Below are positions 12,875 through 58,958 of a stretch of DNA of 64,000 nt, one piece after another. The translations under genes were made by a program, and so were the position numbers. Origin of the DNA: Escherichia coli (GTDB lineage: Bacteria; Pseudomonadota; Gammaproteobacteria; Enterobacterales; Enterobacteriaceae); assembly GCF_009931435.1 (NCBI RefSeq), contig NZ_CP043414.1. One strand, given 5' to 3'. Every line of letters begins with the position of its first letter. Position 1 is the stretch's first letter. The notes under the pieces were generated by a model. The model searched no databases. It was given only the letters and a program-made list of their open reading frames with translations, and had not been told where the DNA came from.

Positions 12875-12990
12875 ACCAAACGACTCGGGGTGCCCTTCTG
12901 CGTGAAGGCTGAGAAATACCCGTATCACCTGATCTGGATAATGCCAGCGTAGGGAAGTCACAGACCACCAGGTCATTGCTTCTTCACGTT
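12875..12990 (+). promoter_or_regulatory. TPP riboswitch (thi box) in the thiM leader
   Basis: ggggtgcccttctgcgtgaaggctgagaaatacccgtatcacctgatctggataatgccagcgtagggaa immediately upstream of thiM; conserved THI-element core (ctgaga, cctgatctggataatgccagcg). Boundaries approximate. Confidence 0.9.
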
Positions 12991-29217: not shown

Positions 29218-29304
29218 AAAAAATAAGCCCGTGTAAGGGAGATTACACAGGCTAAGGAGGTGGTTCCTGGTACAGCTAGCATTTTATGGGTTATGTTTTT
29301 CAGC
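29218..29304 (-). ncRNA. cyaR: CyaR (RyeE) Hfq-dependent small RNA
   Basis: Minus-strand sequence GCUGAAAAACAUAACCCAUAAAAUGCUAGCUGUACCAGGAACCACCUCCUUAGCCUGUGUAAUCUCCCUUACACGGGCUUAUUUUUU matches the CyaR sequence as I recall it, including the terminator hairpin and U-tail. Confidence 0.85.
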
Positions 29305-29388
29305 GAAACGGATGATAACCTTAATAAATGCAGCTGTATGTGATCGGTTTCTAAGAATTTTCCATCCGGGAAAAATAATCGAAATTAA

Positions 29389-43389: not shown

Positions 43390-43531
43390 GAAACGGGAAA
43401 GCCCCTCCCGAGGAAGGGGCCTTAAATAAGGAAAGGGTCATGATGAAGCTACTCATCATCGTGGTGCTCTTAGTGATTAGCTACCCAGCATACTAAGACT
43501 ACCAGGGCGGGGGAAACCCCGCTCTACCCTC
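43390..43531 (-). ncRNA. sibB: Sib antisense RNA covering ibsB
   Basis: Minus-strand promoter: -35 TTGACA (revcomp of about 43562-43567), 17-nt spacer, -10 TACTTT (revcomp of about 43539-43544); terminator-like hairpin gcccctcc...ggaagggg near 43401-43420. Ends approximate. Confidence 0.6.
43440..43496 (+). CDS. ibsB: Type I toxin Ibs (18 aa, hydrophobic)
   Basis: ATGATGAAGCTACTC... encodes MMKLLIIVVLLVISYPAY, preceded by aaggaaaggg. A/B assignment by position (copy nearer mdtA), from memory. Confidence 0.8.
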   Translation: MMKLLIIVVLLVISYPAY

Positions 43532-43717
43532 ACTCCTGAAAGTATGCCTTCACGATAAGATTGTCAATCCGCAGGATTTGCCGTCTGCGATCCTGCCAGC
43601 AAATATTCTTTGCGAGTCGTTACGCAATAATCACAGAGGAAACTATTTTATTCACGCGTTAGCGATAGACTGCATTCAGGGCGAAAGGAGGTAAGCCGAT
43701 GATTTCAGCGGGACGCT

Positions 43718-43866
43718 GAAACGGGAAAGCCTCTCCCGGAGAAGAGGGCTTTTAATAAGGAAAGGGTTATGATGAAGCACGTCATCATACTGGTGATACT
43801 CTTAGTGATTAGCTTCCAGGCTTACTAAGAACACCAGGGGGAGGGGGAAACCTCTCCCTAACCCTC
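43718..43866 (-). ncRNA. sibA: Sib antisense RNA covering ibsA
   Basis: Minus-strand promoter: -35 TTGACA (revcomp of about 43897-43902), 17-nt spacer, -10 TAATTT (revcomp of about 43874-43879); hairpin gcctctcccggagaagagggc near 43730-43750. Ends approximate. Confidence 0.6.
43769..43828 (+). CDS. ibsA: Type I toxin Ibs (19 aa, hydrophobic)
   Basis: ATGATGAAGCACGTC... encodes MMKHVIILVILLVISFQAY; second copy of the repeat unit, nearer yegL. Confidence 0.8.
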   Translation: MMKHVIILVILLVISFQAY

Positions 43867-44048
43867 ACTCCTGAAATTATGTCACTCCGCACTTAGTGTC
43901 AATCGACGGCTCTCCGTTCTTGCGAGGCGAATAGCAAAATTTTCTGCGCCGCCGGGCCTAATTCTGAAAGTTTCTTCGTTTGCTCTTATTTCATTATTGC
44001 AGTCGGTATGATACCGGACCTCGATAATTCTCTAAGAAAGGATTTCTT

Positions 44049-44708
44049 ATGAGCGAACAAATCACGTTTGCCACCAGCGATTTTGCCAGTAACCCGGAAC
44101 CACGTTGCCCCTGCATTTTGCTGCTGGATGTTTCTGGCTCGATGAGCGGCAGACCTATTAATGAACTTAACGCCGGATTGGTGACCTTTCGTGATGAACT
44201 GCTTGCCGATCCGCTGGCTTTAAAAAGAGTGGAACTCGGCATTGTGACGTTCGGCCCGGTGCATGTGGAACAACCCTTTACCAGCGCCGCTAATTTTTTT
44301 CCGCCCATCCTGTTTGCCCAGGGCGATACACCAATGGGTGCGGCCATTACCAAAGCCCTGGATATGGTAGAGGAGCGGAAACGTGAGTATCGTGCAAATG
44401 GTATTTCGTATTATCGCCCGTGGATTTTCCTGATTACCGATGGTGCACCAACCGATGAGTGGCAGGCTGCAGCCAACAAAGTGTTTCGGGGGGAAGAAGA
44501 TAAAAGGTTTGCTTTCTTTTCCATCGGTGTTCAGGGGGCGGATATGAAGACGCTGGCCCAAATCAGCGTTCGTCAGCCTTTGCCTCTGCAAGGATTACAA
44601 TTCCGTGAACTGTTTAGCTGGTTATCCAGTTCGCTGCGTTCGGTTTCCCGCTCCACGCCGGGAACGGAAGTTGTGCTGGAAGCGCCAAAAGGCTGGACGT
44701 CAGTGTGA
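44049..44708 (+). CDS. yegL: von Willebrand factor A domain protein (TerY-like)
   Basis: 219-aa ORF with MIDAS-type DxSxS motif ([11 protein letters not shown]) and downstream acidic residues ([12 protein letters not shown]). Confidence 0.9.
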
Positions 44709-45466
44709 GCTGGCGTCTGGTTTATGCATCCGCTGTTGGAACATCGCACATCAGCGCGGACTTGCCTTGCCAGGATGCCTGCCAGATGCAGGTTGCCTGG
44801 CTAAATGACCAGCAGCCATTACTGGTGATGTTCCTTGCTGATGGCGCAGGTAGCGTTTCGCAGGGAGGAGAAGGCGCGACGCTCGCCGTCAATGAAGCGA
44901 TGGCTTATATGTCGCAAAAAGTGCAGGGTGGGGAATTGGGGCTTAATGATATCCTCGCCACGGATATTGTGCTGACCGTTTGTCAGCGACTTTTTGCCGA
45001 GGCGGAAGCCAAAGAATTAGCAGTTCGCGATTTTGCCTGCACGTTTCTGGGATTGATTTCATCGCCTGACGGCACCTTGATTATGCAGATTGGCGATGGC
45101 GGCGTGGTGGTGGATTTTGGTCACGGTCTGCAATTGCCGCTTACGCCGATGGTGGGTGAATATGCCAATATGACGCACTTCATTACCGATGAAGATGCCG
45201 TTTCCAGACTGGAAACTTTCACCAGCACTGAGCGTGTGCATAAAGTTGCAGCATTTACGGATGGTATCCAGCGACTGGCGTTAAATATGCTGGATAATTC
45301 TCCTCATGTACCTTTCTTTACCCCGTTTTTCAATGGACTGGCGTCAGCAACGCAGGAACAACTCGATTTATTACCTGAATTGTTAAAGCAGTTTTTGTCC
45401 AGCCCGGCGGTAAACGAGCGTACGGATGATGATAAAACGTTGGCACTGGCGCTGTGGTTACCATGA
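44705..45466 (+). CDS. yegK: PP2C-like Ser/Thr protein phosphatase
   Basis: 253-aa ORF starting with GTG that overlaps the yegL stop (GTGA); metal-binding Asp motifs ([10 protein letters not shown]; [11 protein letters not shown]; AFTDG). Confidence 0.88.
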
Positions 45467-47403
45467 AACCCACTTTATATACTGCTACTGGTGAGTGCGT
45501 TACGCCAGGCCGTGAACTGGGCAAAGGCGGTGAAGGCGCGGTTTATGATATCAATGAGTTTGTCGATAGCGTCGCCAAGATTTATCACACGCCGCCACCC
45601 GCCTTAAAACAGGACAAACTTGCCTTTATGGCTGCGACAGCTGACGCGCAATTGTTGAATTATGTCGCCTGGCCGCAGGCAACGCTTCACGGTGGACGAG
45701 GCGGAAAAGTTATCGGTTTTATGATGCCAAAAGTTTCTGGTAAAGAACCGATTCATATGATCTATAGCCCGGCACATCGTCGTCAACGTTACCCTCATTG
45801 TGCGTGGGATTTTCTACTCTATGTTGCGCGCAATATTGCTTCATCTTTTGCTACGGTTCACGAGCACGGGCACGTCGTGGGTGACGTAAACCAGAACAGT
45901 TTTATGGTAGGTCGCGACAGCAAAGTGGTATTGATTGATAGCGACTCCTTTCAGATTAACGCTAATGGCACGTTGCATTTATGCGAAGTCGGTGTGTCGC
46001 ATTTTACGCCGCCAGAGCTACAAACCTTGTCGTCATTTGTCGGCTTTGAACGCACCGCGAATCACGATAATTTTGGCCTTGCCTTGCTGATATTTCACGT
46101 CTTGTTTGGTGGTCGGCATCCTTATTCCGGTGTACCGCTTATCTCTGAAGCGGGTAATGCACTGGAGACGGATATTGCCCATTTCCGTTATGCCTACGCG
46201 TCAGACAACCAGCTACGTGGTTTAAAACCGCCGCCACGATCGATTCCGCTGGCGATGTTACCGGGCCATGTTGAAGCCATGTTTCAGCAGGCATTCACGG
46301 AAAGTGGCGTGGCAACCGGGCGTCCGACGGCTAAAGCGTGGGTAGCGGCACTGGACTCTCTACGCCAACATTTAAAGAAATGTACCGTTTCAGCAATGCA
46401 TGTTTACCCCGCTCATTTGACTGACTGCCCGTGGTGTGCGCTGGATAATCAAGGCGTTATCTATTTTATTGATCTCGGCGAAGAGGTCATTACCACCAGC
46501 GGTGATTTTGTGCTGGCGAAATTCTGGGCGATGGTGATGGCGTCAGTAGCACCGCCAGCATTGCAATTGCCATTACCCGATCATTTCCAACCGACTGGCC
46601 GGCCGCTTCCTTTAGGCCTGTTACGGCGCGAATACATCATTCTGATTGAGATCGCACTGTCAGCGTTATCGCTGTTGCTTTGCGGCCTTCAGGCAGAACC
46701 GCGTTATATTATTTTGGTTCCTGTGCTGGCGGCTATCTGGATTATTGGCAGTCTGACAAGCAAAGCTTATAAAGCAGAAATCCAGCAACGCCGTGAGGCA
46801 TTTAATCGCGCGAAAATGGACTATGACCATTTAGTCAACCAGATCCAACAGTTGGGCGGGCTGGAAGGTTTTATCGCCAAACGGGCGATGCTCGAAAAAA
46901 TGAAAGACGAAATTCTCGGGTTACCGGAAGAAGAGAAACGCGCTCTGGCAGCACTTCACGACACCGCAAGGGAACGGCAGAAGCAGAAGTTTCTGGAGGG
47001 ATTTTTTATTGATGTTGCCTCTATTCCCGGCGTTGGCCCTGCGCGTAAAGCGGCGTTACGGTCCTTTGGTATTGAAACAGCGGCAGATGTTACCCGTCGT
47101 GGTGTTAAGCAAGTGAAAGGGTTTGGCGACCATCTGACCCAGGCAGTTATCGACTGGAAAGCAAGTTGCGAACGCCGTTTTGTGTTCAGGCCGAACGAAG
47201 CGGTAACGCCAGCAGACAGACAAGCGGTAATGGCGAAAATGACCGCCAAACGACATCGGCTGGAATCGACGTTGACTGTCGGCGCGACAGAGTTGCAGCG
47301 ATTTCGCCTTCATGCTCCAGCACGGACCATGCCGTTGATGGAACCTTTACGTCAGGCGGCAGAAAAACTGGCTCAGGCGCAGGCAGATTTAAGCCGCTGC
47401 TGA
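45463..47403 (+). CDS. yegI: Ser/Thr protein kinase-like protein with C-terminal helical/TM region
   Basis: ATG overlapping the yegK stop (ATGA); Gly-rich loop (GKGGEGAVYD), catalytic-loop-like (HGHVVGDVNQNSF), DFG-like (IDSDSF); predicted TM segment around residues 380-420. Confidence 0.88.
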   Translation: MKPTLYTATGECVTPGRELGKGGEGAVYDINEFVDSVAKIYHTPPPALKQDKLAFMAATADAQLLNYVAWPQATLHGGRGGKVIGFMMPKVSGKEPIHMIYSPAHRRQRYPHCAWDFLLYVARNIASSFATVHEHGHVVGDVNQNSFMVGRDSKVVLIDSDSFQINANGTLHLCEVGVSHFTPPELQTLSSFVGFERTANHDNFGLALLIFHVLFGGRHPYSGVPLISEAGNALETDIAHFRYAYASDNQLRGLKPPPRSIPLAMLPGHVEAMFQQAFTESGVATGRPTAKAWVAALDSLRQHLKKCTVSAMHVYPAHLTDCPWCALDNQGVIYFIDLGEEVITTSGDFVLAKFWAMVMASVAPPALQLPLPDHFQPTGRPLPLGLLRREYIILIEIALSALSLLLCGLQAEPRYIILVPVLAAIWIIGSLTSKAYKAEIQQRREAFNRAKMDYDHLVNQIQQLGGLEGFIAKRAMLEKMKDEILGLPEEEKRALAALHDTARERQKQKFLEGFFIDVASIPGVGPARKAALRSFGIETAADVTRRGVKQVKGFGDHLTQAVIDWKASCERRFVFRPNEAVTPADRQAVMAKMTAKRHRLESTLTVGATELQRFRLHAPARTMPLMEPLRQAAEKLAQAQADLSRC

Positions 47404-47414
47404 GCCATTTTCTT

Positions 47415-48767
47415 TTAACGAAATACCACTTCCGCCCAGCGTGCCAGCCCGGCGGTGACGGAGCCAAAGTCATCGCCGCCTGCAATCGGAATGCCCGGCA
47501 ACTGTTCTGCCAGCGCTTTTTTAATCAGCGGCGAACGGGCGCTACCGCCGGTCAGGTAGATGACATCCGGTTTTTCCTGGGCGTTATCCAGGGCCAGTTG
47601 CACCTGTTCCAGAATCCGCGCCAGTGGCTGGCTGAGGGCGCTTTCCAGCCCTTGCTGGCTAATCAGCGTAGCCAGTTCATTGCTGATAAACGGCAGTGAG
47701 GCGCGGGTTTCCGTTACGCTTGAAAGAGCAATTTTGCACTCTTCTGCGCTACGCACCAGGCGATAGCTTAAACGCTGACGCCAGACTTTCTGTAGCAGGG
47801 CCACTTTTTCCGGTTCGCGGGCATCGCGTACCAGATCGTTAAGCAGACGACCGTTGGCACTACTGTAGAAATCACTCTGCGCAGGTACGTCGTTGATGGC
47901 AACCGCATTCCACCACGGCAGGATCGGCAGGGCGATGCCTTTTTCGGTTTCGCCACCCATACCCAGCAGTGGCATCAGGTTTTTAAACGCCAGGGCGATA
48001 TCCAGATCGTTACCGCCAATACGACAACCACTGTGACCCAGCAGACTGGCTTCACGATCGAGACGCGAACGCCACTGCGGCCCCATCAGCAGCAATGAAC
48101 AGTCAGTCGTACCACCGCCGATATCCACCACCAGCACCCGTTTTTCTTCCTGCAAGGTGGCTTCGTAATCCAGCCCAGCCGCGACCGGCTCGTACTGGAA
48201 TACCACGTCCCTGAATCCGGCACGCTTCGCCGCGCGTTCCAGAATCCCTTGCGCCTGGGCGTTTGCTTCATCGCCGCCCAGCCCCTGGAAGTTGATCGGG
48301 CGACCAATCACCGCCTGAGTAATCGCTTCTGGCAGCTGCGCCTGCGCCTGCTGGCGAATGTGCAACATCATTGCGCAGACCAGATCCTCAAACAGCGCTA
48401 CCTGCTGCGGTTTTAAGCCGCTGGCACCGAGGAACGATTTTGGTGATTTCACAAACCACACTTCTTCTGGATCATCAATGTACTGTGCCAGTGAGGAAAG
48501 ACCGAACTGCACGCTTTTCGCCGTAACATCGATATCTTCTTCGCGGTTATAACGAATCGCCCGACGTAACAGCGCCTGCGTTTCATCGTCGTCTGCCGGA
48601 ACATCATGATGGCGGTACAGCCATTCGCTTACCGATTCACGCGTTGGCGCGCAAAGCATTGAAGGCAGCAGCGTGCTGTCGTTTTCCATTTTCAGTAATT
48701 GCGGTTTACCGTCACGCATGACCGCCACTGAACAGTTTGCTGTACCGTAATCAAAACCAATAAACAC
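47415..48767 (-). CDS. yegD: Hsp70/actin-fold ATPase (DnaK-like nucleotide-binding domain only)
   Basis: 450-aa ORF with Hsp70 signatures (IGFDYGTANCSVAV; VVDIGGGTTDCSLL); convergent with yegI, 11-nt gap. Confidence 0.9.
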   Translation of the reverse strand: MFIGFDYGTANCSVAVMRDGKPQLLKMENDSTLLPSMLCAPTRESVSEWLYRHHDVPADDDETQALLRRAIRYNREEDIDVTAKSVQFGLSSLAQYIDDPEEVWFVKSPKSFLGASGLKPQQVALFEDLVCAMMLHIRQQAQAQLPEAITQAVIGRPINFQGLGGDEANAQAQGILERAAKRAGFRDVVFQYEPVAAGLDYEATLQEEKRVLVVDIGGGTTDCSLLLMGPQWRSRLDREASLLGHSGCRIGGNDLDIALAFKNLMPLLGMGGETEKGIALPILPWWNAVAINDVPAQSDFYSSANGRLLNDLVRDAREPEKVALLQKVWRQRLSYRLVRSAEECKIALSSVTETRASLPFISNELATLISQQGLESALSQPLARILEQVQLALDNAQEKPDVIYLTGGSARSPLIKKALAEQLPGIPIAGGDDFGSVTAGLARWAEVVFR

Positions 48768-48900: not shown

Positions 48901-49758
48901 ATGTATACCCTGAACTGGCAGCCGCCGTATGACTGGTCGTGGATGTTGGGATTTCTCGCCGCCCGTGCAGTGAGTGGTGTGGAAACGGTCGCGGACAGTT
49001 ATTATGCCCGTAGTCTGGCGGTGGGCGAATATCGCGGCGTGGTGACTGCTATTCCGGATATAGCCCGCCATACTCTGCACATAAATTTAAGTGCAGGTTT
49101 AGAACCCGTTGCCGCTGAGTGTCTGGCGAAAATGAGCCGCCTGTTTGATCTGCAATGTAACCCGCAGATTGTTAACGGTGCGTTGGGCAAGTTAGGCGCG
49201 GCGCGGCCCGGATTGCGTTTACCCGGCTGTATTGATGCTTTTGAGCAGGGTGTGCGGGCGATTTTAGGCCAACTGGTGAGCGTGGCGATGGCGGCAAAAT
49301 TGACTGCCAAAGTTGTACAGCTTTATGGCGAACGGCTGGATGATTTTCCGGAGTATATCTGCTTCCCCACGCCTCAGCGGCTGGCAGCAGCCGACCCGCA
49401 GGCATTAAAAGCGTTAGGCATGCCGTTGAAACGGGCAGAGGCACTGATTCATCTGGCAAATGCGGCGCTGGAGGGCAGCTTACCAATGACAATTCCGGGC
49501 GATGTGGAGCAGGCGATGAAAACGCTGCAAACTTTTCCGGGTATCGGGCGCTGGACGGCGAATTATTTCGCTTTGCGTGGCTGGCAGGCGAAAGATGTTT
49601 TTCTGCCGGATGATTATCTGATTAAACAGCGATTTCCGGGGATGACACCGGCACAAATCCGCCGTTATGCCGAGCGCTGGAAGCCCTGGCGTTCTTATGC
49701 GCTGTTGCATATCTGGTATACGGAAGGCTGGCAACCAGACGGAACGGACGAATTGTAG
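48901..49758 (+). CDS. alkA: DNA-3-methyladenine glycosylase II
   Basis: 285-aa ORF MYTLNWQPPYDWSWMLGFLAARAVSGVE with helix-hairpin-helix region (FPGIGRWTANYFALRG). Confidence 0.95.
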   Translation: MYTLNWQPPYDWSWMLGFLAARAVSGVETVADSYYARSLAVGEYRGVVTAIPDIARHTLHINLSAGLEPVAAECLAKMSRLFDLQCNPQIVNGALGKLGAARPGLRLPGCIDAFEQGVRAILGQLVSVAMAAKLTAKVVQLYGERLDDFPEYICFPTPQRLAAADPQALKALGMPLKRAEALIHLANAALEGSLPMTIPGDVEQAMKTLQTFPGIGRWTANYFALRGWQAKDVFLPDDYLIKQRFPGMTPAQIRRYAERWKPWRSYALLHIWYTEGWQPDGTDEL

Positions 49759-58478: not shown

Positions 58479-58946
58479 AGTAAGTACAAAACCTATTCGT
58501 TGTATGACAAATGTCACAATTCGATCATGGATAAATCGGGGCAAAAATGCAATGTTGCAGCACTATTTATCTCATATTATTTGAGGGTAATAACCTCACA
58601 TTATCCCTGAATTAAAAGTGGTAATAATAAAACATTATTTAAGAAATATCGCATGTGGAGGCGCAATATTAAATATTGTCAACCTAAAGAAACTCCTAAA
58701 AACCATATTGAATGACACTTAATATAATTCTTAAAAATAGCCAATTGCCGAATTGTTACCTTGCCTGCTATTCCGTTAGCTGTAACACTTCCTCCTGCAT
58801 TATTGGAGAGCCAATATTCAATTACCATAATGTCACCTTATATTCGGAAGTTAATTTCCGCAATAACCCTTTCTCATCAACGATTGTATGCAGAGAGGGT
58901 TTGAAAAATTAAGCTAAATCAGTGTATTGGTAGCTAAAAAGCCAGG

Positions 58947-58958
58947 GGCGGTAGCGTG
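58947..58958 (+). promoter_or_regulatory. ops (operon polarity suppressor) element in the wza 5' leader
   Basis: ggcggtagcgtg seen directly, about 180 nt upstream of the wza ATG; matches the RfaH-recruiting ops consensus GGCGGTAGnnTG. Confidence 0.7.

Follow-up and report, generated by a model that had tools for sequence, protein, structure and literature searches.

We analysed a locus in a window of 64,000 nucleotides from Escherichia coli (NCBI RefSeq assembly GCF_009931435.1, contig NZ_CP043414.1), the window being the whole stretch of DNA examined, in which three genes, yegL, pphC (also named yegK) and yegI, are packed one behind the other. An earlier note on this DNA had proposed that they form a co-transcribed triad of a vWA protein, a PP2C phosphatase and a Ser/Thr kinase of the TerY-P type, with the Hsp70-like gene yegD as a further component of the module. 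The open reading frames (ORFs) and the junction sequences bear out the position of the triad and its GTGA and ATGA overlaps:

44049-44708, plus strand: yegL, 219 amino acids, taken from the ORF list
44705-45466, plus strand: pphC/yegK, 253 amino acids, with a GTG start within GTGA that overlaps the yegL stop
45463-47403, plus strand: yegI, 646 amino acids, with an ATG start within ATGA that overlaps the pphC stop

RefSeq annotates yegL, pphC, yegI and yegD at the same positions in strain IBS28, the nearest genome (99.7% identity). Of 5426 complete genomes of E. coli, 5423 match the 5.6-kb region, and 5333 do so across 80% or more of it. The triad members are already annotated E. coli genes, and the enzyme activities of PphC and YegI have been published. 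Because a 4-nucleotide overlap between vWA and PP2C genes is the median among 70 related loci, the tight coupling of yegL to pphC is not a product of chance; judged from its layout, yegL-pphC-yegI is one translationally coupled operon. A scan of the sequence at the locus for a consensus promoter or terminator gave nothing above chance.

The features within the three proteins on which the interpretation depends are as follows:

44127-44141, plus strand: motif D27-V-S29-G-S31 of the metal ion-dependent adhesion site (MIDAS) of YegL, the site being completed by T94 and D131
44619-44660, plus strand: Ser-rich C-terminal tail of YegL, W191 to P204, a candidate phospho-acceptor segment
45463-46371, plus strand: kinase domain of YegI, amino acids 1-303, an atypical Hanks-type fold in which K39 and D141 are present and DSD stands where DFG is expected
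46381-46437, plus strand: zinc-ribbon-like motif of YegI, C307-x5-H313-x4-H318-x3-C322-P-W-C325
46612-46758, plus strand: transmembrane hairpin of YegI, about amino acids 384-432, two hydrophobic helices in the model
46759-47400, plus strand: cytoplasmic C-terminal module of YegI, a coiled coil with a helix-hairpin-helix (HhH) pair at about amino acids 515-571

YegL was matched by the Pfam VWA profile at 1.7e-9, and the DxSxS motif that had been claimed for it is both present (D27, S29, S31) and conserved, the MIDAS residues being near-invariant in an alignment of 21 sequences (19 YegL homologues plus TerY1 and TerY2). Within the tail, the same alignment showed S193, S195 and S200 to be invariant and W191, S202 and P204 nearly so; the pattern W-x-S-x-S-x4-S-x-S is common to YegL, TerY1 and TerY2. 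YegL is also the best-conserved member of the triad, with 54-85% identity across phyla and a median of 65%, compared to 42% for PphC and 44% for YegI. By these alignments, YegL is a cytoplasmic TerY-like vWA protein whose MIDAS metal site is intact.

Assignment of yegK to the PP2C phosphatases holds on two counts, a Pfam PP2C_2 match at 2.7e-50 and published activity: PphC is an active Mn2+-dependent PP2C in vitro, is inactivated by the D46N mutation and removes phosphates from YegI in vitro (Rajagopalan and Dworkin). In one strain, E. coli E69, pphC (L035 2980-3738) has a dS of 0.73 and 84% amino acid identity to the window, with flanking genes at a dS of 0.27-0.35, which suggests an imported divergent allele.

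The kinase domain of YegI carries a Gly-rich loop (GKGGEG), K39 and a catalytic loop (VGDVNQNS, with D141), as the earlier note had described, whereas the DFG-like motif it reported is in fact DSD. That note had also named failure of profile searches as counting against a kinase fold, and Pfam Pkinase did not match YegI; the only Pfam match was a marginal one to HHH_5 (0.0025, residues 515-550). Weak kinase-domain matches were returned by NCBIfam (LanL, 2.5e-6) and PADLOC (PD-T4-6, 1e-4), and the top PDB sequence match was TTK, with an E value of 0.07. The matter is settled by published biochemistry, as YegI autophosphorylates in vitro on activation-loop serines, the K39D and D141N mutants are dead, and DSD replaces DFG (Rajagopalan and Dworkin); the protein keeps 7 of 10 conserved kinase residues and is nevertheless active, and both YegI and PphC prefer Mn2+. 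YegI thus functions as a kinase but is an outlier among Hanks-type kinases that lacks the full set of catalytic residues.

Downstream of the kinase domain, C307, H313, H318, C322 and C325 are invariant in 20 YegI homologues and would form a putative zinc ribbon. The membrane and coiled-coil region anticipated at the C terminus was likewise found, as the hairpin and the module listed above, and published PhoA-LacZ topology agrees, with two passes and both termini cytoplasmic; YegI is a two-pass inner-membrane Ser/Thr kinase. An AlphaFold2 model of the C-terminal module is all-helical, with a predicted local distance difference test score of 95.8, and clustering at 50% gave 3324 representatives with this module, which in almost every case forms the C-terminal end of a kinase of about 645 amino acids. 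The full-length AlphaFold2 model, built with 20 close homologues, has low confidence in its kinase half; a Foldseek search of the PDB with it returned protein kinases for all top matches, none of them significant. On Agrobacterium plasmid pAtEML4, the C-terminal module (amino acids 428-623) also occurs as a stand-alone protein of about 290 amino acids (L093 4776-5657), directly after hxsB-hxsC-hxsA and before genes for an SH3-domain protein, a CHAT-domain protein and an AAA ATPase. Pseudomonas plasmid pQBR103 (L094 16543-17926) carries the triad together with a second gene annotated with an HhH domain 6.6 kb downstream.

The TerY-P triad of tellurite-resistance (ter) clusters is due to Anantharaman, Iyer and Aravind 2012, as summarised in PMC11090510 and PMC4978471; according to a later summary, its kinase is fused C-terminally to a zinc ribbon. 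For comparison, we used terY1, terX, terY2 and the PP2C and kinase genes of the IncHI2 tellurite-resistance plasmid pHXY0908. YegL was 35% identical to TerY2 (E value 1e-18), and tblastn of YegL against 2332 plasmid records also found TerY proteins. PphC aligned with the ter-plasmid PP2C end to end at 25% identity (2e-6), sharing a C-terminal DD-x-T-x-A-x-LW motif, and YegI aligned with the kinase at 23% identity (3e-6) through the C-lobe and into the Cys...CPxC motif, so that the Cys motif of YegI falls on CPYC of the plasmid protein. The locus thus presents a TerY-like vWA protein with MIDAS, an adjacent PP2C gene, an adjacent kinase with a putative zinc ribbon, and a conserved neighbourhood. 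TerD-family (TerX) and TerW homologues were absent from about 100 fetched loci, all triad neighbourhoods included, and no ter genes surround the locus in the window; linkage to ter genes is typical of the founding TerY-P examples and not required by definition. Since all three proteins are pairwise homologous to the ter-plasmid triad, including the Ser-rich tail and the zinc-ribbon motif, yegL-pphC-yegI can be placed among TerY-P systems on sequence evidence, in line with the original proposal.

Comparison with known systems shows where yegLKI stands within this kind. It shares with the ter-plasmid triad the same three families in the same order, the MIDAS site, the Ser-rich tail and the zinc-ribbon motif behind the kinase, and differs in its low identity (23-35%), in having a single vWA gene instead of several TerY paralogues, and in the lack of nearby ter genes. 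YegI has in addition a transmembrane hairpin and the coiled-coil/HhH module, neither of which is found in the 517-amino-acid ter-plasmid kinase. Another TerY-P system, that of Gao et al. 2020 (PADLOC 'TerY', DefenseFinder Gao_TerY), is likewise a stand-alone cassette of vWA, PP2C and Ser/Thr kinase genes; it is reported to be active against T7-like phages, and its kinases are described in the summary of PMC11090510 as fused to a C-terminal OB fold. YegI is predicted to lack an OB fold and to have instead the putative zinc ribbon, the membrane hairpin and an all-helical C terminus. As with PrkC-PrpC and PknB-PstP, YegI and PphC form an adjacent pair in which autophosphorylation of the kinase is reversed by the phosphatase, an effect seen in vitro with PphC and YegI. 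Unlike PrkC and PknB, however, YegI has no extracytoplasmic sensor domain, lacks 3 of 10 conserved residues and has DSD for DFG, and its pair with PphC is always accompanied by a vWA gene. PD-T4-6 and the kinase region of Mokosh MkoA showed weak profile similarity to the YegI core (1e-4 to 3e-3) over about 100-130 residues; as these matches are limited to the generic kinase core, and neither system is paired with a vWA or PP2C protein, membership of YegI in either family was rejected.

The surroundings of the triad include the following features:

43886-44048, plus strand: yegL leader, with which the Escherichia-specific insertion starts on the left
47415-48767, minus strand: yegD, convergent with yegI, its stop 11 nucleotides from the yegI stop
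43425-43567 and 43754-43902, minus strand: two Sib RNAs (Rfam SIB_RNA, 141.6 and 149.1 bits)
43440-43496 and 43769-43828, plus strand: two ibs ORFs, one per Sib RNA

These coordinates agree with the earlier description of a convergent yegD 11 nucleotides away and of two tandem ibs/sib loci upstream (Rfam 142 and 149 bits, plus the ibs ORFs). Salmonella and Citrobacter keep the order alkA-yegD-ibs-mdtA with the triad absent, and their DNA aligns to the window as far as 43885 and then from 47415 onwards. The insertion specific to Escherichia therefore spans 43886-47414, a 3.5-kb segment that holds the triad and its leader and nothing else, with a right boundary exactly at the yegD stop codon. 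We conclude from these alignments that the Escherichia lineage acquired the triad as one 3.5-kb block, which landed between yegD and ibs/sib. One ibs copy stands at the equivalent site in triad-less Salmonella and Citrobacter, so the ibs/sib loci were in place before the insertion and have no relation to the triad beyond proximity. Copy number at this site varies, with one in Salmonella and Citrobacter, two in the window and K-12, and three in O157:H7 and 23AR0303 (L095 8451-8510; L099 1645-2360).

The same comparison bears on yegD, whose product had been put forward as part of the module. As claimed, YegD has a DnaK-like nucleotide-binding domain and no substrate-binding domain: Pfam finds the HSP70 nucleotide-binding part only, NCBIfam PRK11678 scores 809 bits, and the protein is an actin-fold ATPase. 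A functional tie to the triad could be read from the convergent arrangement, with 11 nucleotides between the stops and no terminator, from the listing of yegD-yegI in the literature as an overlapping-transcript 'excludon' pair, from the reported rise of yegD mRNA on overexpression of yegJ in K-12, and from the presence of Hsp70-like ATPases in some defence systems. Against it, a YegD homologue was found near the triad in 0 of 77 loci outside Escherichia, and YegD is 86-90% identical in Citrobacter, Salmonella and Leclercia, its identity declining smoothly in contrast to the sharp fall of YegI to 63% in Klebsiella. In Salmonella and Citrobacter it lies beside ibs-mdtA without a triad, which leaves the link between the two unsupported, and its sole PADLOC match is a 27-residue ATPase motif. 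Both the 11-nucleotide spacing and the reported overlapping transcription follow from where the cassette landed. YegD is, on this comparative evidence, a vertically inherited enterobacterial gene and a neighbour outside the cassette, and the proposal that it is a module component is not borne out. Some secondary regulatory interplay between yegD and the triad may occur in E. coli; a literature search on YegD function returned nothing useful.

To describe the cassette outside Escherichia, 77 distinct loci were examined, 71 of which hold all three genes. The compact order vWA, PP2C, kinase was kept in 70 of these 71, the remaining locus (L032) having its vWA gene about 7 kb apart. Full-length YegI relatives (about 646 amino acids) are at least 89% identical within Escherichia and 63% identical in two Klebsiella species. 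Elsewhere, identity ranges from 31 to 62%, in Beta- and Gammaproteobacteria, Desulfobacterota, Planctomycetota, Acidobacteriota, Cyanobacteria, an actinobacterium and the archaeon Methanoregula; copies of the triad also occur on plasmids of Pseudomonas, Ralstonia and rhizobia. The patchy distribution across phyla, together with carriage on plasmids and transposons, implies repeated horizontal transfer of a self-contained unit, and to judge by these sequences the triad is a horizontally acquired cassette.

Clustering of all ORFs flanking triad loci revealed no fourth conserved gene. A GspE-like ATPase, RecQ, ABC ATPases and an RNase II-like protein recur as neighbours and were rejected as partners because they are confined to related Planctomycetota or Methanoregula genomes and reflect lineage synteny, and two further apparent families are antisense shadow ORFs in GC-rich DNA. 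No full-length triad homologue was present in 50,697 phage records. The families phrog_28389, 37072 and 37888 of PHROGs v4 are near-identical full-length matches to YegL, PphC and YegI, and probably come from prophage predictions that overran into the chromosome. At two loci, in Piscinibacter (L005 7932-8474) and on a metagenomic contig (L089 7917-8501), a gene with a staphylococcal nuclease (SNase) domain precedes the vWA gene by about 70-100 nucleotides in the same orientation, and its product could be an accessory effector of the triad. A family of 125-amino-acid ORFs (representative L023 999-1373) recurs in L005, L012, L023, L044 and L064; it has no NCBIfam or PADLOC match and is not shown to be an SNase.

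For genomic context, we examined the 8 neighbourhoods outside Escherichia for which precomputed Pfam annotation was available. Canonical defence genes were found within 10 kb of the triad in 4 of them, including components of restriction-modification (RM) systems:

first neighbourhood: GmrSD, type I RM, SymE and BrnA
second neighbourhood: BrxR, JetB, an SLFN-type helicase and ScoMcrA
third neighbourhood: AbiH, a KAP NTPase and a Tn7-like transposon
fourth neighbourhood: type I RM and Mrr

The other four comprised one with conjugation genes, one island of hypothetical genes, one housekeeping context and the locus of Klebsiella aerogenes (L091), whose left flank is as in the K. spallanzanii locus and whose right flank has no defence gene on record. 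In the wider set of loci, a type I RM methyltransferase (M subunit) occurred in 5 unrelated loci and Wadjet JetC/JetD in 2 more.

Within E. coli, the triad is core, being present at a fixed site in 5333 of 5426 genomes (98%). The description of the locus as conserved rather than accessory is thus correct within E. coli, but at the genus level the triad is an acquired 3.5-kb cassette with a patchy distribution. The statement that the triad is also present in K-12 needs a similar qualification: the genes are there, but yegJ, on the opposite strand (L001 3671-4395), is interposed between pphC and yegI, as also described by Rajagopalan and Dworkin and in a 2026 study. Insertion of yegJ at the 45463-45466 junction abolishes the ATGA coupling, and the ATGA is accordingly missing from K-12. 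This split was found in 1899-1934 of 5426 genomes (35%), K-12 included; one genome carries IS1 within yegJ. All three triad genes are intact and under purifying selection, with a ratio of nonsynonymous to synonymous substitution rates (dN/dS) of about 0.05 in yegL and 0.1-0.2 in the other two, values comparable to that of alkA. Positive selection had been considered in view of the low identity between strains and was rejected at dN/dS values of 0.05-0.20, which instead point to looser constraint and some imported alleles, and not to an arms race.

The literature reports weak expression of the triad in stationary phase. In an E. coli screen, overproduced YegL and YegI both scored DNA-damage-up, as did many membrane proteins, and these scores are compatible with a toxic or DNA-directed output. 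The studies that describe the yegJ insertion state that expression conditions and substrates are unknown, in agreement with the earlier remark that the role of this locus is not established; TerY, phages and the HhH region are not mentioned in the Rajagopalan and Dworkin papers or in the 2026 study.

Taken together, we favour an account in which the three yegLKI genes by themselves encode a TerY-P-type phosphorylation switch, and consider this picture, its mechanism included, to be somewhat better than an even proposition. In unstressed cells, PphC would keep YegI off. The cytoplasmic coiled-coil/HhH module of YegI would sense a trigger on DNA or at the inner membrane, for which incoming foreign DNA and DNA or envelope damage are candidates, whereupon YegI dimers would trans-autophosphorylate. 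The substrate of active YegI would then be the Ser-rich YegL tail, perhaps along with targets in the host, and phosphorylation may alter binding at the YegL MIDAS site to give a growth-arresting or protective output. The most likely role of such a switch would be that of a conflict or anti-phage system, now fixed in Escherichia.

The defence element of this account is the more tentative part. Its precedent is the reported protection by a TerY-P-like triad against T7-like phages, and the neighbour pattern, taken as raw counts, is typical of defence-island cargo. Several observations weigh against the account. Defence systems are not usually found at a fixed site in nearly all genomes, 35% of those of E. 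coli get by with a split operon, and the literature describes very low expression in the laboratory. Some loci, such as L087 and those of Planctomycetota, lie in housekeeping contexts. Structure matches to the model of the C-terminal module were generic coiled coils only, and phosphorylation of YegL, DNA binding by the HhH module and the output are steps that we infer. The literature searched holds no phage-protection data for yegLKI. In addition, the TerY-P models of PADLOC-DB 2.0 miss the locus (YegL against PDLC02224 'TerY', E value 0.03; PphC, no match; YegI, generic kinase models only), and yegLKI is absent from the PADLOC candidate systems. In a control, TerY1, TerY2 and the PP2C of the ter plasmid also failed these models, which are evidently narrow, so the lack of a match is hardly informative on TerY-P membership broadly defined; the PADLOC check that had been suggested thus yields no call, and direct homology of all three proteins to the ter-plasmid triad supports the assignment. 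Weighing these points, we judge that yegLKI may have a defence role but put this at somewhat under even. A more specific version would make yegLKI a genus-wide, fixed anti-phage or anti-plasmid module, a TerY-P subtype outside current models, whose membrane kinase senses incoming DNA via the HhH pair and phosphorylates the YegL tail; here the K-12 version, uncoupled by yegJ, could explain why a phenotype has not been seen. As a complete scenario, we consider this unlikely.

The main rival holds that the triad is domesticated, endogenous stress signalling (stationary phase, envelope stress or DNA damage) that acts through Ser/Thr phosphorylation of host proteins and has no role against phages or mobile elements. 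A fixed chromosomal site in E. coli and other Escherichia species, purifying selection on all three genes, the reported stationary-phase expression, the response of DNA-damage reporters to YegL and YegI overproduction, and the housekeeping surroundings of some homologues are all in its favour. It fits less well with the patchy spread across phyla at 31-68% identity and the plasmid and transposon carriage, with RM and Wadjet genes as recurrent neighbours, with the lack of any known host substrate or phenotype, and with Salmonella and Citrobacter doing without the triad. We regard it as the less probable explanation, though one that deserves to be taken seriously. It is improbable, in our estimate, that the triad is a sensor of metal or tellurite stress like TerY-P in ter operons: homology of YegL to TerY1 and TerY2, the intact MIDAS site, the Mn2+ preference of both enzymes and the first proposal of TerY-P as a metal-sensing switch, as a later summary has it, speak for this, and are set against the absence of TerX and TerW homologues from the fetched loci, the mere 23-35% identity to the ter-plasmid proteins and the lack of ter genes near the locus. 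Lower still we place YegD as a functional fourth component, which the phylogenetic distribution described above largely refutes.

Several observations concern other parts of the window. Rfam also matched a thiamine pyrophosphate (TPP) riboswitch at 12876-12972 (plus strand), the CyaR small RNA at 29221-29306 (minus strand) and a JUMPstart element at 58920-58958 (plus strand). The product of alkA (48901-49758) has 285 amino acids in the window, IBS28, UTAK-18 and 23AR0303 and 282 in K-12, O157 and THO-003, pointing to a length polymorphism at the C terminus; dN/dS of alkA is fairly high, at 0.13-0.28.

Ser/Thr kinases are very few in E. coli, and for the role of YegI and PphC the present analysis narrows the hypotheses and supplies concrete mutants for testing. 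The operon is a mobile cassette of the TerY-P type that elsewhere keeps company with RM and Wadjet genes, yegD is irrelevant to it, and its best-conserved member is YegL, an unstudied vWA protein with an invariant Ser-rich tail. A practical trap should be noted, since in K-12 and about one-third of strains the operon is split by yegJ; the compact allele of B strains, O157 and this window is preferable. If the defence role is true, current defence-finding tools would be missing a system that is present in nearly every E. coli genome.

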